Source: Escherichia coli (lineage in GTDB: Bacteria > Pseudomonadota > Gammaproteobacteria > Enterobacterales > Enterobacteriaceae). From it: a DNA stretch of 64,000 nt. The DNA is taken from NCBI RefSeq assembly GCF_024700885.2, contig NZ_CP117016.1. One strand, 5' to 3'. The translations under genes and the position numbers were made by a program. The first letter of the stretch is position 1; the number at the start of each line of letters is the position of its first letter. Of this stretch, positions 20,728-32,408 are shown one piece after another. The notes under the pieces are model-generated. The model saw nothing but the letters and a program-made list of their open reading frames with translations, made no database searches and was not told the origin of the DNA.

Positions 20728-21882
20728 TCAGACCGCTTTAATGTCGATGGCTTCACCCTGCATCCGTTTACGCAGAGTACGTTTCGTACGGTCGATAACA
20801 TCGCCCGCCAACTGTCCACAGGCAGCATCGATATCATCACCACGAGTTTTACGCACAATAGTGGTGAAACCGTAGCTCATCAGCACTTTTGAGAAACGGT
20901 CGATACGGCTGTTCGAACTGCGTCCATACGGCGCGCCAGGGAACGGGTTCCACGGGATCAGGTTGATCTTACACGGCGTATCTTTCAGTAGCTCCGCCAG
21001 TTGGTGCGCGTGTTCAGTGCCGTCGTTAACGTGGTCAAGCATCACGTATTCAATAGTGACTCGGCCCTGATTGGCGTTGGATTTCTCCAGATAACGGCGC
21101 ACCGCAGCAAGGAACGTTTCGATATTGTACTTTTTGTTGATCGGCACAATTTCGTCACGAATTTCATCGTTCGGCGCGTGCAGGGAAATTGCCAGTGCAA
21201 CGTCGATCATATCGCCCAGTTTATCCAGCGCCGGAACTACACCGGAAGTGGAAAGCGTCACGCGACGTTTAGACAGACCAAAGCCAAAGTCATCCAACAT
21301 GATTTCCATCGCCGGAACGACGTTGTTCAGGTTGAGCAGCGGCTCGCCCATGCCCATCATCACTACGTTAGTGATTGGGCGCTGACCGGTGACTTTTGCT
21401 GCGCCGACAATTTTCGCCGCACGCCACACCTGGCCGATAATTTCCGATACCCGCAGGTTGCGGTTAAAGCCCTGCTGGGCGGTGGAACAGAATTTACACT
21501 CCAGCGCACACCCTACCTGCGAAGAGACGCAGAGCGTGGCACGGTCGTCTTCCGGGATATACACCGTTTCAACGCGCTGATCGCCAACGGCGATCGCCCA
21601 TTTAATGGTGCCGTCAGATGAACGCTGTTCTTCAACCACTTCCGGTGCACGGATTTCCGCCACCTCTTTCAGTTTGCCGCGCAACACTTTATTGATGTCG
21701 GTCATCTCATCAAAGTTGTCGCAGCAATAGTGATACATCCACTTCATCACCTGATCGGCGCGGAAGGGTTTTTCACCTAAATCTTTAAAAAACTCCCGCA
21801 TCTGCTGACGGTTGAGATCCAGCAGGTTGATTTTTCCATCTTTCGTGGTGACGTTTTCAGGTGTGACTAATTGTTCAGACAT
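20728..21882 (-). CDS. rlmN: 23S rRNA/tRNA m2A methyltransferase RlmN (radical SAM)
   Basis: 384 aa; CxxxCxxC radical SAM motif (CALECKFC). Confidence 0.95.
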
Positions 21883-22031
21883 ATGCTATTCCGGCCTCGT
21901 TATTACACGTTATGGCCCCTGGAGGGTTGAAAAAAGAAACGCCCCGGTGAGCGGCTGCTCGTCCGGGGGCGCTGCATTGTACAAATTCTGGCGCATGGAT
22001 GCCACGTTTGCACGCGGCATTTACGAAATTA

Positions 22032-22463
22032 TTAACGGGTGCGCGGGCACACTTCGCCTTCGCCGAAGAAATAAGCGATTTCGCGAGCGGCAGATTCGAC
22101 GGAATCAGAACCGTGGGTACCGTTTTCGGTCAGGCTGTCAGCGTAATCAGCGCGCAGAGTACCGGCCAGTGCATTTGCCGGATTGGTCGCGCCCAGCAGA
22201 TCGCGGTGACGCTGAACGGCGTTTTCACCTTCCAGCACGGAAACCACGATCGGGCCAGAGGTCATGAATTCAACCAGACCATCAAAGAACGGTTTTCCAT
22301 CGTGTTCAGCATAAAAGCCACGAGCCTGTTCAACGGTCAGGTGCAGCATTTTGGTGCCGACAATTTTGAACCCTGCAGCTTCAAAGCGCGCAAAGATATT
22401 ACCAATGACGTTTTTTGCTACCGCGTTCGGTTTGATGATGGAAAAAGTACGTTCAATAGCCAT
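22032..22463 (-). CDS. ndk: Nucleoside diphosphate kinase
   Basis: 143 aa; NIIHGSD-type active site region ([12 protein letters not shown]). Confidence 0.97.
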
Positions 22464-22611
22464 TTTTACCTCTGTAAATTGTTCTGTTGTTGTCTGTACC
22501 AGCGTACGAGATGGCGCGGATTATAATGAGCAACAGGGCCGTTGACTATTGATGAAGGTAACATTTTTTTAAAATAAACCTAGTTTAAGCAACAATCAGG
22601 GACAAAACAGA

Positions 22612-24924
22612 CTATTGCATGACAAATTTCACTGTCGCGATTTGCCCCACCTCATCCATCACCAGCAATTGATAATCGCCTTTATCCATCAAATGCAGGG
22701 TCACGTTGCGCCCGCGTTCAGTTAACGGTTCGCCATTCAGAAACCACCAGCGTTCACCTGCCCCTCCACTTGATTGCAACGGCAAAGTCGCTTCCGCTGC
22801 GCCCGGTAAACGTTTAATAATCGCGCCATCGCGAACACCTGTCAGCTGCAGTGGGAGTTGTGCATCGTGACCGTATGGCGGGCAAATTGTCGAGGCCGGT
22901 GGTAAGCGCACAGCGCGGCGTTCTGATGCGGGCAACCAGGGTTCCAGCGGTAGCGGCCAGACATTTATCATTTCTTGTCGCGCTTGCGGGCAATCAGCGG
23001 CAACACGTTTGCCATTTTCATCCAGCCAGATGGGGAAACGAATGCCATTAATGCCTTCCTGCTCCGGCAGTAATAGAGTTGGCGGCTGGCTCCCGTCCAG
23101 CAGCCAGGTTGCCAGGCGGCGGCGACAGTTACCGTCACCTTCCGGCAAAGACTGTCCGCCCGGCCAGCAGATAACACCACGACTTACAGAGTCAGGACGT
23201 GGGTCTTCCGGCAGATTCGCACTGCGCGACAGTAAGATATTATTAACCTGATTCAACAATGGTACGGCGCTGGCAAAGCCAAACTGACCAACAACGGGCG
23301 TGCCGTCCGGTCTGCCAGTCCAGATCCCAATAACATAGCGAGCGTTAACCCCAATCGCCCAGGCGTCACGATAGCCATAGCTGGTGCCCGTTTTCCATGC
23401 CAGTGGGGCGACGCGCGGCAAGGCACTATCCGGCAAGGGTTGCGCTTCATCAGCCATAATCCGGCGGATGATCCACGCAGCCCCCGACGACATTAAAGGC
23501 CGTTCAAGCAGCGGATCGTCAGGCTGTAAGCGCAATTTACCTGCCTTGCCGTGGCGAGCAAACGCGGTATACGCTGCCGCCATATCTTCCAGTTTTGCAC
23601 CAGCGCCGCCGAGAATGAGCGAAAGATTCGGTGCAGCACCGTTGGGCAAATATAGCGGCAATCCAACATTGCGTAACTTTGCCGCAAACCGTTTCGGTCC
23701 ATAGGCTTCCAGCACCTGCACAGCAGGTAAGTTCAGCGAGCGCACCAGCGCCTCACTCATGCTGATCGGGCCATGAAAACCGCTGTCAAAGTTGCCAGGT
23801 CGGTAATCACCGGTGCGCCGGGGTACGTCTTGCAACAGCGATGCCGGGTGGATCAAGCCTTCATCCAGCGCCAGACCATAAACAAACGGTTTGAGCACCG
23901 ATCCTGGCGATCGGATCGCATTGACCATATCAACATGACCAAAGCGTGAATCATCGTTGAGATCAACCGATCCCACCCAGCCGCGAACACGCATATCGGT
24001 ATGATCAACAACGATCATCGCCAGTGAGCTGCGCGGTGGTAATCGTCCTTTCCAGTTTTGCGCCAGTTCTTCCAGACGTCGTTGAAGACCGGCATCCAGC
24101 GTCGTAACGATTTTGTCGCTTTTGCTTTTACCGAGCATCATGCGCGAAAACAGCGGTGCCAGTTGCGGCATTTGTCGGGGTGCCAGCCAGATGGGTTCTT
24201 CCCTTGACTCTTTTACCTGCTCACGGGACCACACACCTTGCACGGCCATCCGTTCGAGCACTTTATTACGCGCGGCTTCGGCACGCTCCGGCCAACGATC
24301 CGGGCGTAGTCGGCTGGGTGCTTGCGGCAAAACCGCCAGCATTGCCGCCTCGGAATAGCTTAAATTCGCAGGCGACTTTCCGAGATAAGCCCAACTTGCC
24401 GCACCGATCCCCTGCAACGTACCGCCAAACGGAGCGCGGTTAAGATACAAGGTCAGAATTTCACGCTTAGGCAGATGCCATTCCAGTTGCAACGCGCGCC
24501 AGAGCTGGCGAATTTTGCCGCCAAATGTTTTGGGGTGAGGATCAAGCAGACGAGCAACCTGCATAGTGAGCGTGCTGCCACCGGAAATAACCCGTCCCGA
24601 AGTGAGATCTTGCCATGCTGCGCGCGCCACCGAGAATGGATTCACCCCCGGATGCTTCCAGAACCAGCGATCTTCATAATTGATCAGCGCTTCAAGGTAA
24701 CGTGGAGAAACATCTTCGATTGTTACCGGATAACGCCAGATGCCGTCAGCATCGGCGAAGCGCCAGAGCGGCGTCCCATCCTGAGCCACAACCACTCGTG
24801 CGGGATTGACTTCATGCAGCGGTAGAGGCCAGAGTTTATCTGCTCCCCACGCTGCAAGAAAAAGGAGAAAGGGCGCGGCTGCCAGCGTTATCCAGCAGCC
24901 GCGTTTGGTTAACAGGCGAGGCAT
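22612..24924 (-). CDS. pbpC: Penicillin-binding protein 1C
   Basis: 770 aa; start directly abuts yfhM stop. Confidence 0.95.
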   Translation of the reverse strand: MPRLLTKRGCWITLAAAPFLLFLAAWGADKLWPLPLHEVNPARVVVAQDGTPLWRFADADGIWRYPVTIEDVSPRYLEALINYEDRWFWKHPGVNPFSVARAAWQDLTSGRVISGGSTLTMQVARLLDPHPKTFGGKIRQLWRALQLEWHLPKREILTLYLNRAPFGGTLQGIGAASWAYLGKSPANLSYSEAAMLAVLPQAPSRLRPDRWPERAEAARNKVLERMAVQGVWSREQVKESREEPIWLAPRQMPQLAPLFSRMMLGKSKSDKIVTTLDAGLQRRLEELAQNWKGRLPPRSSLAMIVVDHTDMRVRGWVGSVDLNDDSRFGHVDMVNAIRSPGSVLKPFVYGLALDEGLIHPASLLQDVPRRTGDYRPGNFDSGFHGPISMSEALVRSLNLPAVQVLEAYGPKRFAAKLRNVGLPLYLPNGAAPNLSLILGGAGAKLEDMAAAYTAFARHGKAGKLRLQPDDPLLERPLMSSGAAWIIRRIMADEAQPLPDSALPRVAPLAWKTGTSYGYRDAWAIGVNARYVIGIWTGRPDGTPVVGQFGFASAVPLLNQVNNILLSRSANLPEDPRPDSVSRGVICWPGGQSLPEGDGNCRRRLATWLLDGSQPPTLLLPEQEGINGIRFPIWLDENGKRVAADCPQARQEMINVWPLPLEPWLPASERRAVRLPPASTICPPYGHDAQLPLQLTGVRDGAIIKRLPGAAEATLPLQSSGGAGERWWFLNGEPLTERGRNVTLHLMDKGDYQLLVMDEVGQIATVKFVMQ

Positions 24925-27900
24925 TTACGGTCTGACAATCAGCAAATCTTCAGCCGCGCCGGTCGCCCGCCATTGGGGAACATACATTGATTCCACCATC
25001 GGTTGCGGTACCTGATACGTTCCCGGCGTCACCGCCCGCGCCAGATACACCAGCGTTACCGGTTGGTATTCATCAACGGCAACCGCCGCCACAAAGCGAT
25101 CGTCACGGAACTCAATGTGCTTAATGCTCGCCTGCTGCATCTGGTTCAGTAAGTTTTGCACTTCGCCACCACTTTGCTCCAGGCTGGCGCTACCGTTCGC
25201 CAGATTCTGGTTTTCCAGTTCCAGACCCGCAGGCAGCAGATCCACGACTAACGCATCCGGCACGCTGTTACTGGCTTTAACCTGCAACCAGACCAGCACC
25301 AGATCGCCGCTACGTAACGAGTCCAGCGATTTGCTCTTACCATCAGTACCAAGAATATGACGCTCGATTTGCAGCACATTGTTCGCCGGTAAAGGTGCGG
25401 ATTGCGGATAACCGTTGGCATCCACACGCAGCCATAACGGCTGATCGCCACTGTTGGTCACCTGCAAGGTGGCAAGTTGATCGCTATTCAGATTGCTGTT
25501 TTGCGCTTTCTCGCCTGTCAGCGGCTCAGCTGAGAAAGAGGTTTGCGCCTGCCATTTACCCGGTAAATCCTGGATCGTACGGGCAGCCATGAACAACGCG
25601 TTGCTTTCCTGCGTCGATAGCCAGCGTTCACCAAACGCCTGCTGCGAAAGCGTGTTCAGCAAAGTGTTTTGCTCATCGGGTAGCAGTTTATTTTCTTCCA
25701 GCAAGGAGAGCATTAACGCGTTGTCGCGCAGTGGGCTACCGTAATCACCCAGCCATTTCCGCTCATCATTACGCGGCGTTTTCAGCGCCAGCGCAATCGC
25801 TTCTTCACTACGCGTCGCATCCCCCATGGTTTTCAGCGCAACGCCAAGTTGCAGCAGCGGTAATCCAGACGCAGCATCTGCACGATGCTCCCAGATTTCA
25901 CGCAGCGCACCCAGTGGTGCTTTTTGCTGACGGGCCAGCACCAGCGCAGCGTAAGACTGTACGGCGAATTTACTGGCTTTGAGATTATCCGCGTACGGGA
26001 TCGACATCATGCCCGGATCTTGTAAATAGCGCAGCAGACGCTCATTTCCCCGGTTAATGACGTCTGTCGGCACGCTGTAACCCTGCTCACCTGCGCGGAC
26101 CAGGAAATCCATCACGTAAGCCGTCAGCCAGTACTCTTCGTCACCGTTTTTATCCCACAGCGCAAAGCCGCCGTTATCACGTTGCATTTGCAGCAAACGG
26201 GAAATGCCGATATCGACCGATGCACGGCGCTTCTCATCACTGTCGCCTTTGATGCCCAACGCCTGCAGTTGGGCTGCGTTGGTATAAAGTGACGGGAACA
26301 GGCCGCTGGCGGTTTGCTCAAGACAGCCGTACGGATACGCTTTTAACTCTTTGATATAACGTGCGATGTTCAGCGGTGGTTTGCCGCTCAACAACAATTG
26401 CCCTTCCAGTGTAACAGGCGAGAAGTTTTGCAATCCATCCGCCGGAATCGCCCATGTCTCACCAGGCTGCAACGCCGTACCGTAATTAACCGTTTGTGCC
26501 GGGAACGCCGGACGGACGCCGATTTTCCACTGCTTATGCTGATCGGCAACGGTTTCACCCGGTAACGCTAACCCGCTAATGGTGGCCTGAATTTCTCCAT
26601 CGCCATAACCCGGCAATGCTCGCACCGGGATAAACAGCGTAGTACGCACACCTGGCGCTAATTCAACGGCTGCGGGTGAAACGCTGACCAGTTCAAGCAA
26701 ACCACTGGCGGTCAGGGCAACGTTCAGTTTTTGCGGTTTATCGGTAAGATTAGTGATATCCAGCGTCAGACGCGAGGTATCGCCACTCGCCATAAAGCGC
26801 GGCATGTTCAGTTCAGCAATCACCGGTGCGGCAACTATCACTTTGCTTTCGTTGCTACCGAAGTCATCTGCCGTCCAGGCTTGCGCCATGACGCGTAGTT
26901 CACCGTTAAAATCGCCAATCGGCAGTGTAACCGAGCCTTCGCCCTGTTCGTTGAGCGTTACCGGCAGCGCCTGCTGCGCGACAATATTGACGTGATTGAC
27001 CGGCGGTTTACCACCACGTTTCAGCTCATCACCATCGCCACCAAAACGCAGAGCTGCCAGACGCCCCTGACCTTCAATGACCTGACCGTAAATATCGTAA
27101 ATGTCTGCACCATAGCGTTTCTGACCAAAGAACGCCTGCCACGGATCGGGGGTAACGTAATCAGTAATATTCAGCACACCGCTATCAACGGCAGACACCA
27201 GCACATTCACCTGTTTTGGCATCTCACCATTTTTATTGCTGGCTTTAATTTTCACGGTTAATGGCTGATTGGGGCGCATTTTGGTGGGGGTTTCCAGCGC
27301 CAGATCGAGACGACGGTTTTCATCGCCAAGCGGCAGATGCAACACCCCAACTGCGCGTTTTGGCGTCGCAGAGCGAGATTTATCGCCAGGACGTACCACC
27401 AGCGTACTTAAATACAAATCATGACGATTCCAGGTTTTATCGACCGGAATCGTCAGATCCAGCCCTTGAGCCGGAACATCAATCTCTTGCCACCACAGCG
27501 GCCCTTCACTGGACTCGACCATCGCATAACCTTTACCCGCCGTTGGCGCGGCGATATGCAACTTAATGGTGTCGCCAGGGCGATAACTGGCTTTATCCAG
27601 TTTCAGCGTGACACGGTCCGGACGCACTGCGCCGCTCCCGTCGCTGTTGTCCTGCCAGCTATAGCCAGCCCAGAAACGCACACTACTGACCGCTTCATTC
27701 GGCGCTTTGACTTCCAGACGATAAGCGCCCCACTCTACCGGGAAACTGACCTTGCCGGTTTCGTCCGCTTTCAGATCCAGAGTTTGTTCATTTTCAATCA
27801 GATCTTTTTGATCAAACTGTGATTGCCAGCCTTCATCTTCTGACCAGTTCCAGTAGTAATCGCGGCGTTCGCGAATCAGGCGCACCTGCAAGCCCGACAC

Positions 27901-29883
27901 GGCTTTTTTCACGCCTTGCGCATCGCTATAAACGATGTCAAAAGCGGCGTTACTGCCTTCATCAACAATGGGCTGTTTCACCGTGCTGTCAGTGCGATAA
28001 TCGTAAACCGATTTCGAGGCGAACTGCGGACGGATCCCCGGCAATGCATCGGCAGGCCAGATAGCCTGCTCAGCGCGGCGCGTCACCGGGCGACCGCCCG
28101 ATTCCAACAAACTACCCTGGAAAATAACCTGTAATGGGGAATGCGTTTCCTTCCACTGGCTTTCTGTAGAAACTTCGCCACGCCCTTTATCATCCAGCGT
28201 CAACTGAACTTCATCCAGCGTGCGGGAAAGATTTTCGGCAGCTATATCGCCGAATTCGAAACCAGGTAAGGCTGACACAGCTTCACGCAGTGGGCGCAGG
28301 AAAAGTTGCCCTTGCAAAGTATTACCATTAGCAGGCGCACCATACAGGTAGTACCCCACCACGGAAAATCTCACTTCATCTTTCGGCGTTAGCGGGGTTT
28401 TCTCACCAGTCAGATTCAGCGCCATGCGCTCTGGCATAAAATCTTCGACGTGGAAATCCCACATCCGGTACTGGTTATCGCCCGTGTTAGCGCGAATATG
28501 CCACATACCGGTTGCCGCATTGCTATCGAGTGGCCAGGTAAAGTGGTAGAGGCCATTCTCCGGCTGACTAACGACGCTCCTGAGTACCTGCCCGTCGGGT
28601 TTAATCACGTCTAACTTGATGGGTTGATCGGGCAATGCTTTACCATCTGCATCACGCAATAAACCATTGAGGATAACTGTTTCACCAGGGCGATAAAGAT
28701 CGCGCGGGCCAAACATGAAAAACTGTTTGCTATAGCCTGGCGCGCCAGCAATGATAAATTCTGCTAAGTCCAGCGCCGGAAGTTTTAAATCGAGTAGCGT
28801 TGTCTGACCGTCTTTACGCGCCAGCAGTAATGCCGCGTTTTTATCATTTTCCAGCTGCACATGCCCCTGAGCATCACTGGTTGCCTGAGTCAGAGTCTGC
28901 CCTTTCTCATTTAATAAAGAGACTTCTATTCCTTGCTGGGCCGCGCCGTTTTCCAGACTTTGGGTAAAGATATCCAGACGATTGTGATAACGGTGAGCTG
29001 AAACGCCGATATCACTTAACGTAAACAGCGTCGCGGGATTACTGTAATCGTAACGTCCAGCCTGATTCATCACAGCCAGGTACACGCCTGCCTGCTGAAG
29101 CGGTTTGATATCGCCCAACGGCAGCAATAATTTTTCACGGGTGTTACGCGCAGGATTGAGATCAAACCGTCCGGTGTAGACCAGATCCGCCATCTGCAGC
29201 AGTTTGTCAGACTGCCAGTTCGCCAGCGAATTGCGGTATTCCCATTGGCTAATGAATGCTGGCAGAGATTCTGGCTTAACACGGAAGAAGTTAACATCGA
29301 CATTATTAACATTGAGCGCCATTACCGGCAGCCCTTCAATAACTTTACCAGGTAACAACGAGCCACGGCTGGCAAAACCGACGCTGGGTTGGATATCGCG
29401 GGTAGTTATAGTTTTTTCGTAATCTTTACTGAAGGTTGCGTTGTTGAGTGCTTTGACCTCCTTGCCAATAGTGACGATCAAATCACGTTTCGGTTCGAGG
29501 TGGCGTAAACGCAACTCTTTAAGATTATCTGACAGCTCCCAGGCACCATCCACTTTGCCGCTTTTCTTATCGACGACATGGATAACGCGTGAGAAATCCT
29601 GATCCGGGTCGAGAGGGATGGAGAACGTCAGCACCAGCGTGGCTGCGCCATCAAGTTGAACTTCAGAGAGATCCAGCAATGTCAGCGCCTTACCGGCACT
29701 CTGTTGTGCCAGTTTTTGTCGCTCCGGCACGGAGAGTTTTGCTGAACTCGCGTTTTCTGAAGAGACCGCTTTAGTAACTTCAGAAGGCGCATCTTTTTTC
29801 ACCGCTGTTGGCGCGTTATCGTTGTTGTCGCACCCTGCCAGCGCCAGCATTAGCATGCAGGCGGCTACGCGTAACTTTTTCAT
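24925..29883 (-). CDS. yfhM: Alpha-2-macroglobulin family lipoprotein YfhM
   Basis: 1652 aa; signal peptide with LAGC lipobox. Confidence 0.95.
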   Translation of the reverse strand: MKKLRVAACMLMLALAGCDNNDNAPTAVKKDAPSEVTKAVSSENASSAKLSVPERQKLAQQSAGKALTLLDLSEVQLDGAATLVLTFSIPLDPDQDFSRVIHVVDKKSGKVDGAWELSDNLKELRLRHLEPKRDLIVTIGKEVKALNNATFSKDYEKTITTRDIQPSVGFASRGSLLPGKVIEGLPVMALNVNNVDVNFFRVKPESLPAFISQWEYRNSLANWQSDKLLQMADLVYTGRFDLNPARNTREKLLLPLGDIKPLQQAGVYLAVMNQAGRYDYSNPATLFTLSDIGVSAHRYHNRLDIFTQSLENGAAQQGIEVSLLNEKGQTLTQATSDAQGHVQLENDKNAALLLARKDGQTTLLDLKLPALDLAEFIIAGAPGYSKQFFMFGPRDLYRPGETVILNGLLRDADGKALPDQPIKLDVIKPDGQVLRSVVSQPENGLYHFTWPLDSNAATGMWHIRANTGDNQYRMWDFHVEDFMPERMALNLTGEKTPLTPKDEVRFSVVGYYLYGAPANGNTLQGQLFLRPLREAVSALPGFEFGDIAAENLSRTLDEVQLTLDDKGRGEVSTESQWKETHSPLQVIFQGSLLESGGRPVTRRAEQAIWPADALPGIRPQFASKSVYDYRTDSTVKQPIVDEGSNAAFDIVYSDAQGVKKAVSGLQVRLIRERRDYYWNWSEDEGWQSQFDQKDLIENEQTLDLKADETGKVSFPVEWGAYRLEVKAPNEAVSSVRFWAGYSWQDNSDGSGAVRPDRVTLKLDKASYRPGDTIKLHIAAPTAGKGYAMVESSEGPLWWQEIDVPAQGLDLTIPVDKTWNRHDLYLSTLVVRPGDKSRSATPKRAVGVLHLPLGDENRRLDLALETPTKMRPNQPLTVKIKASNKNGEMPKQVNVLVSAVDSGVLNITDYVTPDPWQAFFGQKRYGADIYDIYGQVIEGQGRLAALRFGGDGDELKRGGKPPVNHVNIVAQQALPVTLNEQGEGSVTLPIGDFNGELRVMAQAWTADDFGSNESKVIVAAPVIAELNMPRFMASGDTSRLTLDITNLTDKPQKLNVALTASGLLELVSVSPAAVELAPGVRTTLFIPVRALPGYGDGEIQATISGLALPGETVADQHKQWKIGVRPAFPAQTVNYGTALQPGETWAIPADGLQNFSPVTLEGQLLLSGKPPLNIARYIKELKAYPYGCLEQTASGLFPSLYTNAAQLQALGIKGDSDEKRRASVDIGISRLLQMQRDNGGFALWDKNGDEEYWLTAYVMDFLVRAGEQGYSVPTDVINRGNERLLRYLQDPGMMSIPYADNLKASKFAVQSYAALVLARQQKAPLGALREIWEHRADAASGLPLLQLGVALKTMGDATRSEEAIALALKTPRNDERKWLGDYGSPLRDNALMLSLLEENKLLPDEQNTLLNTLSQQAFGERWLSTQESNALFMAARTIQDLPGKWQAQTSFSAEPLTGEKAQNSNLNSDQLATLQVTNSGDQPLWLRVDANGYPQSAPLPANNVLQIERHILGTDGKSKSLDSLRSGDLVLVWLQVKASNSVPDALVVDLLPAGLELENQNLANGSASLEQSGGEVQNLLNQMQQASIKHIEFRDDRFVAAVAVDEYQPVTLVYLARAVTPGTYQVPQPMVESMYVPQWRATGAAEDLLIVRP

Positions 29884-30089
29884 TTTTCATCCCTGCCACA
29901 ATGGCCCGTTAGCAACGTCGAATAATTATTATGCGTGAGAATTTACGTTATGTAATTCAGTATCACGCCCATACAATCCGAATTTTAGTGAGAATTGTGG
30001 CTCAGACAGCCAAATCAGCCTCTTTTGCTTGTCGCTTTTCACTAAACATCCGACAATTTAGCCTAACCCCGGCAAAAATGGAGATGCCT

Positions 30090-30935
30090 ATGTCCACGAC
30101 ATGGTTTGTAGGAGCCGACTGGCTCGCCGAACATATTGATGACCCGGAAATTCAGATTATCGATGCCCGCATGGCGTCGCCTGGACAGGAAGATCGTAAC
30201 GTTGCTCAGGAGTATCTGAATGGACATATTCCCGGCGCAGTGTTTTTTGATATAGAAGCGCTTTCTGATCACACTTCCCCGCTTCCGCACATGCTGCCGC
30301 GCCCGGAAACGTTCGCCGTGGCGATGCGTGAATTAGGCGTTAACCAGGACAAGCACCTGATTGTCTATGACGAAGGTAATCTTTTCTCAGCCCCACGAGC
30401 ATGGTGGATGCTGCGCACCTTTGGTGTAGAGAAAGTGTCGATTCTGGGTGGTGGACTTGCAGGCTGGCAGCGCGATGATCTGCTGTTAGAAGAAGGTGCA
30501 GTAGAGCTGCCGGAAGGAGAGTTTAACGCCACGTTTAATCCTGAAGCCGTGGTGAAAGTCACCGATGTGTTATTGGCAAGCCATGAAAATACGGCGCAAA
30601 TTATTGATGCCCGCCCGGCTGCACGTTTTAACGCAGAAGTTGATGAACCTCGCCCAGGTTTACGTCGCGGACATATTCCCGGTGCATTGAACGTTCCGTG
30701 GACGGAACTGGTGCGCGAAGGCGAACTAAAAACGACCGATGAACTGGATGCTATATTTTTTGGTCGCGGCGTCAGCTATGACAAACCGATTATCGTCAGC
30801 TGCGGCTCTGGTGTAACGGCAGCCGTGGTTTTGTTGGCACTCGCGACGCTGGATGTGCCAAACGTGAAAATGTACGACGGCGCATGGAGTGAATGGGGCG
30901 CACGGGCAGATTTACCGGTTGAGCCAGTGAAATAA
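30090..30935 (+). CDS. sseA: 3-mercaptopyruvate sulfurtransferase
   Basis: Start set to MSTTWFVGADWL (track ORF begins 53 codons upstream); tandem rhodanese domains. Confidence 0.93.
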   Translation: MSTTWFVGADWLAEHIDDPEIQIIDARMASPGQEDRNVAQEYLNGHIPGAVFFDIEALSDHTSPLPHMLPRPETFAVAMRELGVNQDKHLIVYDEGNLFSAPRAWWMLRTFGVEKVSILGGGLAGWQRDDLLLEEGAVELPEGEFNATFNPEAVVKVTDVLLASHENTAQIIDARPAARFNAEVDEPRPGLRRGHIPGALNVPWTELVREGELKTTDELDAIFFGRGVSYDKPIIVSCGSGVTAAVVLLALATLDVPNVKMYDGAWSEWGARADLPVEPVK

Positions 30936-30951
30936 GCTTTTTACAGGCAAT

Positions 30952-30982
30952 AAAAAACCGCCGAATTTGGCGGTTTTTTATT
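30952..30982 (+). terminator. Intrinsic terminator after sseA
   Basis: AAAAAACCGCC-gaattt-GGCGGTTTTTTATT. Confidence 0.6.
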
Positions 30983-30985
30983 GTG

Positions 30986-31690
30986 CACAGAAAACCCCCA
31001 GCTAGGCTGGGGGTTCCGGAAAGCTTTCAGCTTTGAGCCAGTTATTAAAACCCCTTTTGATTTGTTAAAACACCTTGCGGTCTGGCAACTGCAAGTGTCA
31101 AACAAGAAATCAAAAGGGGGTCCCAATGGGGGACGAAAAGAGCTTAGCGTACACCCGCTGGAACTGTAAATATCACATAGTTTTTGCGCCGAAATACCGA
31201 AGACTGGCGTTTTACGGAGAGAAGCGTAGGGCGATAGGCAGTATTTTGAGAAAGCTGTGTGAGTGGAAAAGCGTACGGATTCTGGAAGCAGAGTGCTGCG
31301 CAGATCATATCCATATGCTTGTGGAAATCCCACCCAAAATGAGCGTATCCGGCGTTATGGGATATCTGAAAGGGAAAAGCAGTCTGATGCTTTACGAGCA
31401 GTTTGGGGATTTGAAATTCAAATACAGAAACAGGGAGTTCTGGTGCCGAGGGTACTATGTCGATACGGTGGGTAAGAACACGGCGAAGATACAGGACTAC
31501 ATAAAGCACCAGCTTGAAGAGGATAAAATGGGGGAGCAGTTATCGATTCCATATCCGGGCAGCCCGTTTACGGGCCGTAAGTAACGAAGTTGAATGCAAA
31601 TGTCAGATCGTATGCGCCTGTTAGGGCGCGGCTGGTAACAGAGCCTTACAGGCGCATTTGAAAAACCTCCGGCTATGCCGGAGGATATTT
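30986..31690 (+). mobile_element. IS200-like insertion sequence (IS200/IS605 family); ends approximate
   Basis: Y1 transposase gene plus upstream hairpins: CCCCCAGCTAGGCTGGGGG (left-end terminator-like) and CCCCTTTTGATTT...AAATCAAAAGGGG pairing that would sequester the tnpA SD. Confidence 0.6.
31126..31584 (+). CDS. tnpA: IS200 transposase TnpA (HUH/Y1)
   Basis: 152 aa from MGDEKSLAYTRWNCKYHIVFAPKYRR; HUH motif (HIHML) and catalytic Tyr region (GYYVDTVG). Confidence 0.9.
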   Translation: MGDEKSLAYTRWNCKYHIVFAPKYRRLAFYGEKRRAIGSILRKLCEWKSVRILEAECCADHIHMLVEIPPKMSVSGVMGYLKGKSSLMLYEQFGDLKFKYRNREFWCRGYYVDTVGKNTAKIQDYIKHQLEEDKMGEQLSIPYPGSPFTGRK

Positions 31691-31692
31691 AT

Positions 31693-31960
31693 TTGCTGGT
31701 CTGGTTCGCGGCCTTTCCAGCAGGTTGTATTACTGCAAGTGTATCTCGTCTACTCAATACTCGCTTTATGCATCAACGATGTCAAGTAGATAAAAAAGGA
31801 TAGATTTTGAATTCATTTGGCTTATCAGTCCGAATTCAGACAAATATAAACAAATCCCGCTTAATATTAAAATATACTAACTGGTAAAAGATATTACTTA
31901 AACGTGTAATTTCACTTTCTTTAAACAACAAAAAACCGCCAAAATCAGGCGGTTTTTTGT
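31693..31960 (+). ncRNA. Candidate sRNA-like element, copy 1 (RyfA-family position between sseA and sseB)
   Basis: Starts with conserved block TTGCTGGTCTGGTTCGCGGCCTTTCCAGCAGGTT shared with copy 2; ends at intrinsic terminator 31931-31960; no convincing ORF. Confidence 0.3.
31931..31960 (+). terminator. Intrinsic terminator
   Basis: AAAAACCGCC-aaaatca-GGCGGTTTTTTG. Confidence 0.55.
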
Positions 31961-32408
31961 TGCTGGTTTGGTTCGCGGCCTTTCCAGCAGGTTCACTTGT
32001 GTTGCATGAACAACGCAGGTGCCTCACAGCAAAAGAATACTCGCTGTTAAGAAATTTTGTGTCAAGTAAAAAACGAGTAATTATTTTTCGGTTAGCGTAT
32101 TATCGACACCGGCCCTTTCCGCCGTCTCGCAAACGGGCGCTGGCTTTAGGAAAGGATGTTCCTTGGCCGTAAATGCAAGTGTATCTCGTCGCTTGCTATC
32201 GCGGCAATATCGCCAGTGGTGATGTCGTGATGCGGTCTTCGCATGGACCGCACAATGAAGATACGGTGCTTTTGTATCGTACTTATTGTTTCTGGTGCGC
32301 TGTTAACCGAGGTAAATAATAACCGGAGTCTCTCCGGCAACAATTTATTGGTGGTTAACAACCTTCAGAACAGCAGGTAAACCCGAATGCCGCCCTTTGG
32401 GGCGGCAT
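31961..32408 (+). ncRNA. Candidate sRNA-like element, copy 2
   Basis: Repeat of the conserved 5' block plus shared AATACTCGCT and TGCAAGTGTATCTCGTC segments; ends at hairpin 32387-32408. Confidence 0.25.
32387..32408. terminator. Hairpin between copy-2 element and sseB 3' end (possible bidirectional terminator)
   Basis: ATGCCGCCC-tttg-GGGCGGCAT with T-rich flank. Confidence 0.45.

Follow-up and report, generated by a model that had tools for sequence, protein, structure and literature searches.

The yfhM-pbpC gene pair and its junction

The reverse strand of this Escherichia coli window (the whole 64,000-nt stretch analysed) carries two adjacent genes, yfhM and pbpC, with no nucleotide between them. 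The locus raises the question of whether this abutment is just compact packing or whether synthesis of PbpC depends on translation of yfhM. The features that define the pair are:

24925..29883, minus strand: yfhM (ECAM) CDS, 1652 aa plus TAA, from the ORF list, Pfam, motifs and RefSeq yfhM in the identical strain 1190
24925..24927, minus strand: yfhM stop TAA, read in the sequence and invariant in the Escherichia and Citrobacter examined
24922..24924, minus strand: pbpC start ATG, from the sequence, the ORF list, profile NF008414 (from residue 1) and the RefSeq start
22612..24924, minus strand: pbpC CDS, 770 aa plus stop, from the ORF list, NCBIfam, Pfam and motifs

We identified YfhM as a bacterial alpha-2-macroglobulin (A2M) by Pfam and NCBIfam. 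Its Pfam matches (bMG1, A2M_bMG2, bMG3, MG2, bMG5, bMG6, A2M_BRD, A2M, TED_complement, CUB_A2MG and bMG10) all exceed their cut-offs, and the architecture is that of a type-I A2M: multiple MG domains, a bait region, a thioester domain, CUB and a C-terminal MG. A motif search of the N-terminus (MKKLRVAACMLMLALAGC-D) identified a signal peptide and a lipobox (LAGC) with Asp at +2, marking YfhM as a lipoprotein, and the thioester motif CLEQ, of the CxEQ type, lies at residue 1187. PbpC, the class A penicillin-binding protein PBP1C, matches the NCBIfam equivalog NF008414 (1565 bits versus a cut-off of 1121), with residues 1-770 aligned to profile positions 1-774. It contains Transgly (GT51) and Transpeptidase domains, BiPBP_C at the C-terminus, and the expected motifs of a glycosyltransferase (EDRWFWKHPG, 84) and a transpeptidase (SVLK 342, SLN 396, KTG 511). 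The N-terminus of PBP1C is a basic tail followed by a transmembrane (TM) anchor.

Read directly, the minus strand from 24930 to 24919 is ccg TAA ATG cct, and slightly further upstream AGA CCG TAA ATG CCT. In the ORF list the yfhM stop (24927..24925) and the pbpC ATG (24924..24922) have a spacer of 0 nt and share a frame, so a single TAA separates the two genes. The claim of an earlier note that the yfhM stop directly abuts the pbpC start is borne out by both the sequence and the ORF list; the interval that it gave, 24921-24928, takes in the six bases TAAATG.

Such spacing is common. Distances of -8 to +6 nt occur in 707/2987 co-directional E. coli gene pairs (Huber et al. 2023, PMC10666635), and a stop-to-start distance of 0 places yfhM-pbpC inside this class as defined in that study. 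In the surrounding 50 kb, 6 of the 33 same-strand pairs are spaced by +4 nt or less. The tight spacing alone is thus not statistically remarkable. Moreover, every reference E. coli genome carries the pair in its annotation and the A2M-PBP1C neighbourhood has figured in the literature since 2004, so confirming the pair brings nothing new: this is an ordinary, already annotated operon junction. Its only unusual traits are that pbpC has no ribosome-binding site and that the predicted RNA fold is very tight.

Conservation of the pair

In RefSeq the abutting pair is annotated alike in K-12 and six other E. coli strains, and the yfhM end plus one equals the pbpC start in strain 1190 (100% identical to the window), K-12 MG1655, clone D i2, NQ3, Esc7 and CFSAN004176. 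Comparison with reference genomes, which the earlier note had proposed, thus recovered the same TAAATG abutment in K-12 and others. A 96-nt query across the junction gave one unbroken alignment in 5424 of 5426 complete E. coli genomes, and TAAATG is unchanged in 6 Escherichia and 2 Citrobacter sequences despite substitutions nearby. As judged from these alignments, the trait of the junction that goes beyond chance is this stability of TAAATG across relatives.

The arrangement extends well beyond Escherichia. PbpC representatives for the synteny comparison came from a 50% cluster library; a first protein search had given almost only Citrobacter. In about 65 of 79 species loci, and in most of the Proteobacteria sampled, the gene immediately 5' of pbpC on its strand encodes an A2M. 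The two are often -4 to +11 nt apart: Escherichia and Citrobacter have a spacing of 0, other Enterobacteriaceae have +1 to +11, and about 10 alphaproteobacteria show -4 (ATGA). The window matches the K-12 ECAM/PBP1C locus in genes, order, strand and TAAATG junction, with the lipobox, CLEQ thioester and PBP1C domains and motifs intact. Only allelic differences were identified (YfhM of 1652 versus 1653 aa, and a junction region about 97% identical).

The type-I A2M/pbpC pair is a recognized one in the literature (Budd et al. 2004; Doan & Gettins 2008; Fyfe et al. 2015, PMC4498604; Robert-Genthon et al. 2013, PMC3735191), and a partnership of protease defence and wall repair between A2M and PBP1C has been proposed (Budd 2004, as relayed in PMC4498604 and PMC3735191). 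The "known functional pairing" of the earlier note therefore stands as a conserved neighbourhood and a proposed defence-and-repair partnership, but not as a demonstrated interaction.

Ribosome binding and RNA structure at the pbpC start

pbpC lacks a Shine-Dalgarno (SD) sequence. Within the 30 nt preceding its ATG, anti-SD pairing reaches at best -1.0 kcal/mol; yfhM has -6.0, ndk -7.1 and rlmN -5.9. In the -20..-1 interval the pbpC value is 0, jointly the weakest, with two others, among 33 neighbouring pairs. None of 10 Enterobacteriaceae relatives has a well-placed SD before pbpC. The gene thus appears unable to recruit ribosomes alone.

The start codon is also predicted to be buried in RNA structure. 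Two hairpins were predicted:

24910..24972, minus strand: hairpin 1 (predicted), -29.3 kcal/mol
24874..24903, minus strand: hairpin 2 (predicted), pbpC nt +22..+51, 12 bp with a 6-nt loop, -22.3 kcal/mol

Hairpin 1 spans the last 15 codons of yfhM, the TAA, the ATG and pbpC codons 2-5, with the G of the AUG and pbpC codons 2-4 predicted to pair with the W-R-A codons of yfhM. It is kept in 6 Escherichia sequences, with helices 100% and 96% paired; covariation of the hairpins within Escherichia is not significant (matched or exceeded by 92/500 shuffles). Over 121 nt the junction has a predicted fold of -53.5 kcal/mol (z = -3.5), in the top 0.26% of all tiles of the window.

With no ribosome-binding site and the AUG held in a hairpin, the start codon would be accessible only via a ribosome translating yfhM, and reinitiation is the most plausible route to PbpC. 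We infer that yfhM and pbpC form one bicistronic unit in which PbpC is made, sub-stoichiometrically, by reinitiation after yfhM, and we regard this reading as a likely one. The minus-strand transcript would probably be driven from the yfhM-sseA divergent region, its pbpC AUG locked in a stable hairpin to which the yfhM coding sequence contributes. On translating the last part of yfhM, a ribosome would melt this hairpin and terminate at the UAA immediately 5' of the AUG, and a fraction of the terminating ribosomes would reinitiate there. PbpC synthesis would then depend on, and be lower than, YfhM synthesis.

This scheme resembles that of previously studied coupled pairs (Huber et al. 2019, PMC6728339; Huber et al. 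2023, PMC10666635) in co-directionality, in a spacing within the efficient-reinitiation class of -8 to +6 nt, and, as far as sequence can suggest, in an apparent dependence of the downstream gene on upstream translation. It differs from them in having a spacing of 0 rather than the dominant -4 or -1 and no SD motif within the 3' end of yfhM, and in that YfhM and PbpC are not known as subunits of a stoichiometric complex.

Translation without a strong SD is common to many E. coli genes. The stretch just 5' of the pbpC AUG also contains A/U (GACCGUAAAUG), so ribosomes might start pbpC de novo on a shared transcript, with the abutment reflecting packing without coupling. We consider this improbable, given that free binding of the 30S subunit is disfavoured both by an anti-SD score of essentially zero and by a -29 kcal/mol hairpin in which the AUG and codons 2-4 are paired, the junction ranking within the most structured 0.3% of the window.

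Transcription of the pair

We identified two features that bear on the boundaries of a shared yfhM-pbpC transcript:

29928..29956, minus strand: candidate sigma-70-like promoter of the yfhM-pbpC unit, ATTACA-17-CATAAT, 9/12 matches, a pattern match only
22464..22611, minus strand: pbpC-ndk spacer, 148 nt, the downstream boundary of the pair, from RefSeq and the promoter/terminator scan

The candidate promoter lies about 45 nt 5' of the yfhM ATG. A pattern scan of the minus strand identified no sigma-70-like promoter in 24925..29883, the whole of yfhM, and no terminator-like site at the junction; totals of promoter- and terminator-like sites in the scan equal the shuffle expectation. The Term-seq tables of Adams et al. 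(2021) contain no minus-strand 3' ends between K-12 positions 2644588 and 2653354, where low expression could hide one, and neither gene is mentioned in the accessible parts of the supplements to the SMRT-Cappable-seq (Yan 2018, PMC6131387) and Term-seq (Adams 2021, PMC7815308) studies. A separate promoter and terminator between the genes, which would have spoken against an operon, were thus found neither in the 0-nt spacer nor in the scan and the K-12 Term-seq tables. Downstream, the pbpC-ndk spacer contains the region's best promoter-like match (TAGTCA-17-TATAAT, 22548..22520) and no terminator-like site by the scan; the K-12 Term-seq tables list no 3' end right after pbpC, the next one being inside or after ndk. 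Taken from sequence, these features support co-transcription of yfhM and pbpC as a bicistronic unit.

Internal promoters are common in E. coli operons. One inside yfhM could be the main source of pbpC transcripts, so that the pair would not be a simple operon, and genomic SELEX placed a binding peak of RpoE holoenzyme inside yfhM (PMC5493296). Depending on the genome version of the coordinate, that peak may fall near the 5' end of yfhM. A sigma-E promoter was sought with the loose pattern AACT-N15-19-TCNAA and rejected: matches occur at chance level only (5 observed in the window, fewer than the 8.5 expected), with a single such match in the 5' part of yfhM. Given also the absence of minus-strand sigma-70-like sites within yfhM in the scan, a main promoter there seems unlikely; even so, the SD-less, occluded pbpC AUG would need upstream translation.

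Hairpin 2 and structure past the yfhM stop

Stable RNA structure just past a stop codon inhibits reinitiation, as reported by Chemla et al. (2020, PMC7518266). In the same study such ribosome termination structures (RTSs) are over-represented when at least 25 nt separate the stop from the next gene, and depleted in closer E. coli pairs. Hairpin 2 sits where an RTS would. The minimum 40-nt fold directly past the yfhM stop, at -23.4 kcal/mol, lies far below the -6 kcal/mol limit set for an RTS and is far stronger than the -5 to -15 of the 12 remaining pairs less than 25 nt apart; it is as strong as that of nearby terminator-bearing gene ends. An RTS should also be more stable than its surroundings, and the junction ranks in the top 0.26% of window tiles. 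The yfhM-pbpC junction is like an RTS in having a stable predicted structure directly 3' of the stop; it differs in that this structure lies at a 0-nt junction, within the downstream coding sequence.

Hairpin 2 shows one compensatory change, U-A to G-C, in E. albertii. Analogous hairpins occur at the same position in 12/12 Enterobacteriaceae, each more stable than its codon-shuffled controls; the shuffles already reach -15 to -22 kcal/mol, so much of the stability is owed to the amino-acid sequence. RNAalifold on a MAFFT alignment of Enterobacteriaceae gave no consensus structure (-6.8 kcal/mol), codon indels disturbing the alignment, while single-sequence folds place the hairpins in different registers. 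A covariance model of hairpin 2 built from Escherichia retrieved only Escherichia and, weakly, C. werkmanii (E = 0.13), and is therefore too sequence-specific for a homology test. An Rfam scan of 22000-32000 (E<=1) gave no match near 24850-24990. The recurrent hairpin 2 is a new detail, and by its predicted folds the junction carries more structure than is usual between such closely spaced genes.

Hairpin 2 may limit yfhM-pbpC coupling. Since post-stop structure is reported to be inhibitory and depleted in close pairs (PMC7518266), the junction could be poorly coupled; under the RTS model (PMC7518266) a structured junction would lower reinitiation, so coupling is probably obligatory but inefficient.

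A pyrimidine-rich stretch follows the hairpin:

24856..24873, minus strand: pyrimidine/U-rich tail CCCTTTCTCCTTTTTCTT after hairpin 2, from the sequence and scan

About 50-65 nt into pbpC, hairpin 2 and this tail might together cause partial intrinsic termination or attenuation. The majority of transcripts would in that case stop past yfhM, with pbpC transcribed only if a reinitiated ribosome disrupted the hairpin. Like an intrinsic terminator or attenuator, the site has a GC-rich 12-bp stem-loop (-22.3 kcal/mol) followed by a pyrimidine/U-rich stretch (CCCUUUCUCCUUUUUCUU). The -23.4 kcal/mol post-stop fold rivals nearby terminator-bearing ends and exceeds the other 12 close pairs, hairpins recur at the same position in the 12 Enterobacteriaceae, and the equivalent hairpin in Enterobacter sp. 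BIGb0383 is the sole terminator-like site flagged in 2 kb. Unlike such elements, the hairpin lies inside a gene, and its tail (CCCUUUCU) fails the U-tract requirement of the scan (at least 5 T in 8 bases, 0-2 nt from the stem), leaving it unflagged because three C residues part the stem from the first U. The T run is broken in B2 strains, and the tail encodes P-F-L-L-F-L of the PbpC TM helix, whose Phe/Leu/Ile codons account for its U-richness, as the amino-acid sequence accounts for much of the stem's stability. The K-12 tables of Adams et al. (2021) have no RNA 3' end at the U tract, where low expression could hide one. On balance we view attenuation here as doubtful, more so than de novo initiation or an internal promoter.

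A broader reading, to which we also give little weight, is that the junction goes beyond compact packing and forms a conserved three-part RNA device gating PbpC output. Its parts may be the stop-abutting, SD-less AUG, the hairpin that hides this AUG until a ribosome comes through yfhM, and the GC-rich hairpin, conserved in position, with its U-rich tail 22 nt into pbpC. Such a device may either insulate pbpC by capping reinitiation or attenuate it in a translation-sensitive way, ending transcription whenever reinitiation fails.

Start-codon assignment

The genes would not abut at all if the true pbpC start were at codon 13 or 14, as chosen by some automatic gene callers (cluster representative P0001, 758 aa and 10805 members, begins MLAAAPF, and P0086 begins MAAAPF; codon 13 is ATG in B2 strains and codon 14 is TTG in K-12), but this is very improbable: in the window these codons are ACG and CTG, not start codons, and the annotated ATG is the only ATG/GTG/TTG 5' of the membrane anchor; the basic tail (K7, R8) before the TM helix would be lost; an ATG or GTG 0 to +1 nt past the A2M stop is kept in Escherichia, Citrobacter, Enterobacter and Superficieibacter; and the NCBIfam equivalog alignment begins at residue 1.

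Readthrough of the UAA into a YfhM-PbpC fusion was considered, the genes being in frame, and rejected. Both release factors recognize UAA, and with the type-II anchor of PbpC placed after periplasmic YfhM, the catalytic domains would end up on the wrong face of the membrane. The 903-aa P0086 is likewise not a fusion but a C-terminal frameshift variant.

Implications for PBP1C

Tightly spaced pairs are reported to be depleted of RNA structure past the stop; the junction, as folded here, is an exception. Polar effects on pbpC are to be expected when yfhM is deleted or tagged. If the three-part RNA device were real, PbpC would be fixed at a small fraction of YfhM. Failure of pbpC to recruit ribosomes itself would make the poorly understood PBP1C strictly dependent on expression of the periplasmic protease trap YfhM, and such dependence fits the proposed partnership of defence and repair.

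Gene identity and junction geometry

In the window, the minus strand at the junction reads ATT GTC AGA CCG TAA ATG CCT CGC CTG, and the two genes share a reading frame across a 0-nt spacer. The earlier note placed the yfhM stop directly against the pbpC start with no intergenic space, and its coordinates are right: the TAA adjoins the ATG. The elements, from the ORF list (genes) and the sequence (codons), are:

24925..29883, minus strand, yfhM ORF, 1652 aa
22612..24924, minus strand, pbpC ORF, 770 aa
24927..24925, minus strand, yfhM stop codon TAA
24924..24922, minus strand, pbpC start codon ATG

YfhM has the complete bacterial alpha-2-macroglobulin (A2M) domain set by domain search, a lipobox (LAGC, then Asp) and the thioester motif CLEQ at residue 1187. 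PbpC (PBP1C) matches its equivalog model end to end (residues 1-770 on profile 1-774) at 1565 bits, versus a cut-off of 1121, and contains Transgly, Transpeptidase and BiPBP_C domains with intact catalytic motifs. The window belongs to E. coli; a 1051-nt query over the junction matches strain 1190 at 100% identity.

Conservation of the junction

The abutment, compared with reference genomes, is annotated alike in six strains: RefSeq places the end of yfhM 1 base ahead of the pbpC start in strain 1190, K-12 MG1655, clone D i2 (group B2), NQ3, Esc7 and CFSAN004176. TAAATG is unchanged across an alignment of six Escherichia sequences, E. albertii among them, although flanking positions vary. The junction query matched 5425 of 5426 complete genomes. 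Only one of these, NCTC9100, showed partial query cover (73%), and it is the only genome without the downstream half, pbpC and ndk having been cleanly deleted. The NCTC9100 deletion (locus L003, 6052..6085) runs precisely from pbpC codon 6 to the last ndk codons at an ACC microhomology; an 8-codon remnant ORF, MPRLLTTR*, still adjoins the yfhM stop.

More broadly, an alignment of diverse PbpC representatives was used to fetch 79 species loci, about 65 of which have an A2M gene immediately 5' of pbpC on the same strand. Escherichia and Citrobacter have 0 nt between the A2M stop and the pbpC start. Other Enterobacteriaceae have spacers of +1 to +11 nt, Yersinia and Photorhabdus have about 50-60 nt, and about 10 alphaproteobacteria and a few others have a -4 nt distance (an ATGA overlap). 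In Pseudomonas spp. (L013-L018, L059) about 400-740 nt separate the A2M end from the likely pbpC start, and the genes are not tightly joined. Given this spread, the sequence comparison indicates that the neighborhood is ancient, that tight junctions recur in differing forms, and that a distance of exactly 0 nt is peculiar to the Escherichia-Citrobacter lineage.

The pbpC start codon

Some automatic callers choose a pbpC start 12-13 codons later, as in the PbpC cluster entries P0001 and P0086. This is possible because codon 13 is ATG in B2 strains and codon 14 is TTG in K-12; P0001, a 758-aa representative of 10805 members, starts from the in-frame ATG at codon 13. In the window, codons 13 and 14 are ACG and CTG, and the abutting ATG is therefore the sole start codon before the membrane anchor. 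This start retains the basic tail MPRLLTKRG. Citrobacter likewise has ATG at distance 0, and Enterobacter and Superficieibacter have ATG or GTG at +1.

In the B2-type alleles (L083, clone D i2; L084, NQ3), Thr13Met creates the in-frame ATG that misleads gene callers, and within codons 20-30 the anchor changes from FLLFL to FIIIL. Clone D i2 also has a 9-nt duplication (AAWAAWA), giving a PbpC of 773 aa. P0086, a 903-aa ENA metagenome protein, is 95% identical to PbpC across 93% of its length; a frameshift then replaces the BiPBP_C domain with an unrelated 130-aa tail. Either a pseudogene or an assembly error is the probable explanation.

Transcription signals

A consensus scan for promoters and terminators covered window positions 21800-31000, with shuffled sequence as the expectation; overall, site counts equaled that expectation. 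Inside yfhM the minus strand contained no sigma-70-like match, and the junction contained no terminator-like one. With a 0-nt spacer, there is no separate promoter and terminator between the genes, consistent with the co-transcription proposed earlier. Two regions flank the pair:

29956..29928, minus strand, candidate promoter just upstream of yfhM (consensus match)
22464..22611, minus strand, pbpC-ndk spacer with the region's best promoter match, TAGTCA-17-TATAAT (strong promoter-like)

The pbpC-ndk spacer contains neither a terminator-like site in the scan nor a published Term-seq 3' end. In the K-12 Term-seq data tabulated by Adams et al. 2021, consecutive minus-strand 3' ends lie at 2644336, 2644588 (ndk) and then 2653354, with none within pbpC or yfhM. 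Transcripts of yfhM-pbpC may extend as far as the ndk terminator (window 21953..21940). In a genomic SELEX study, an RpoE-holoenzyme peak is listed within yfhM (PMC5493296); our pattern search found no convincing sigma-E-like motif in that gene.

Elsewhere in the window, an IS200/IS605 tnpA (~31126..31584, plus strand) lies just past sseA and is annotated likewise in strain 1190. The Hfq-binding RNA STnc490 (Rfam RF01405, 146 bits; 30993..31116, plus strand) is 5' of tnpA, and one of the window's most stable folds begins beside it at 31606 (plus strand). The IS128/RyfA RNA (Rfam RF00125, 165 bits) occupies 31794..31972 (plus strand), and timP, encoding a small toxic inner-membrane protein, lies downstream of the IS200 copy at ~32255..32380 (plus strand) and is annotated in the identical strain.

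Predicted structure at the junction

The 121-nt junction (24865..24985, minus strand) has a predicted two-hairpin fold of -53.5 kcal/mol (z = -3.5), in the top 0.26% of all 121-nt tiles on both strands of the 64-kb window, or 0.7% after GC correction. Start regions are usually unstructured, the reverse of what is predicted here. The hairpins are:

24972..24910, minus strand, predicted hairpin 1, -29.3 kcal/mol
24903..24874, minus strand, predicted hairpin 2, -22.3 kcal/mol, 12 bp, pbpC nt +22..+51

In predicted hairpin 1, yfhM codons pair with pbpC codons 2-4 and with the G of the AUG; hairpin 2 is followed by CCCTTTCTCCTTTTTCTT. Within Escherichia 98% of pair cells remain paired, and the variable pairs comprise 10 one-sided compatible changes, 1 compensatory double substitution and 3 broken pairs; this conservation is not significant versus a shuffle control. 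No Rfam family matched the junction.

In single-sequence folds, a GC-rich hairpin resembling hairpin 2 occurs at pbpC nt ~+20..+55 in all 12 Enterobacteriaceae sequences examined (window 24874..24903, minus strand, and equivalents in loci L004-L009, L024, L050, L083 and L084). Stem sequences vary by genus, and a covariance model built from the Escherichia hairpin fails to generalize. Some substitutions in the arms change the encoded residues on both sides yet leave the pairing intact. Against 200 codon shuffles that left protein and codon pool unchanged, the native hairpin was more stable in 12/12 (z -0.7 to -5.65), and for five its stability was reached by <=5/200 shuffles. The shuffled regions already fold at -15 to -22 kcal/mol, and most of the stability therefore comes from the amino-acid sequence. 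Outside Enterobacteriaceae, 5 of 15 pbpC 5' ends showed excess hairpin stability. In Enterobacter sp. BIGb0383 (L008, 2938..2967) the hairpin is the sole terminator-like site flagged in 2 kb; the same scan left the window's hairpin 2 unflagged. Hairpin 2 might act as an attenuator, though this is a speculative reading.

Translational coupling

Within 30 nt ahead of the pbpC ATG, the best anti-Shine-Dalgarno (anti-SD) pairing is -1.0 kcal/mol, versus -6 to -7 at the starts of yfhM, ndk and rlmN. Only yfhM-pbpC, of 33 same-strand gene pairs across 50 kb of surrounding sequence, is spaced at 0 nt; it scores zero for SD and has the most stable -60..+60 fold (-53.5 kcal/mol; next, -46.2). None of 10 Enterobacteriaceae relatives has a well-placed SD for pbpC; several alphaproteobacterial ATGA junctions do.

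Reporter work has shown that E. coli reinitiation requires overlaps or very short spacers and drops steeply with distance (PMC10666635). Taken together, the 0-nt junction, absent SD and sequestered AUG make obligatory termination-reinitiation the simplest reading: ribosomes would terminate at the yfhM TAA and then reinitiate at the pbpC AUG. According to other published work (PMC7518266), reinitiation is inhibited by stable structure just 3' of a stop codon, and such structure is depleted where genes lie <25 nt apart; this 0-nt junction, strongly structured by prediction, is an exception to the depletion. In our reading, coupling is probably obligatory but inefficient, which would yield little PbpC relative to YfhM.

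The earlier note also invoked a known functional pairing. That the two genes occur as a pair, in this order and with operon-like linkage, is indeed established (PMC4498604, PMC3735191), but the proposed partnership itself is a hypothesis credited to Budd et al. 2004, and no PBP1C-linked phenotype was published before 2018 (PMC6131605). Overall, the abutting junction is real and its interpretation correct and already known; the minor additions here are the absent SD and an unusually structured, position-conserved hairpin.
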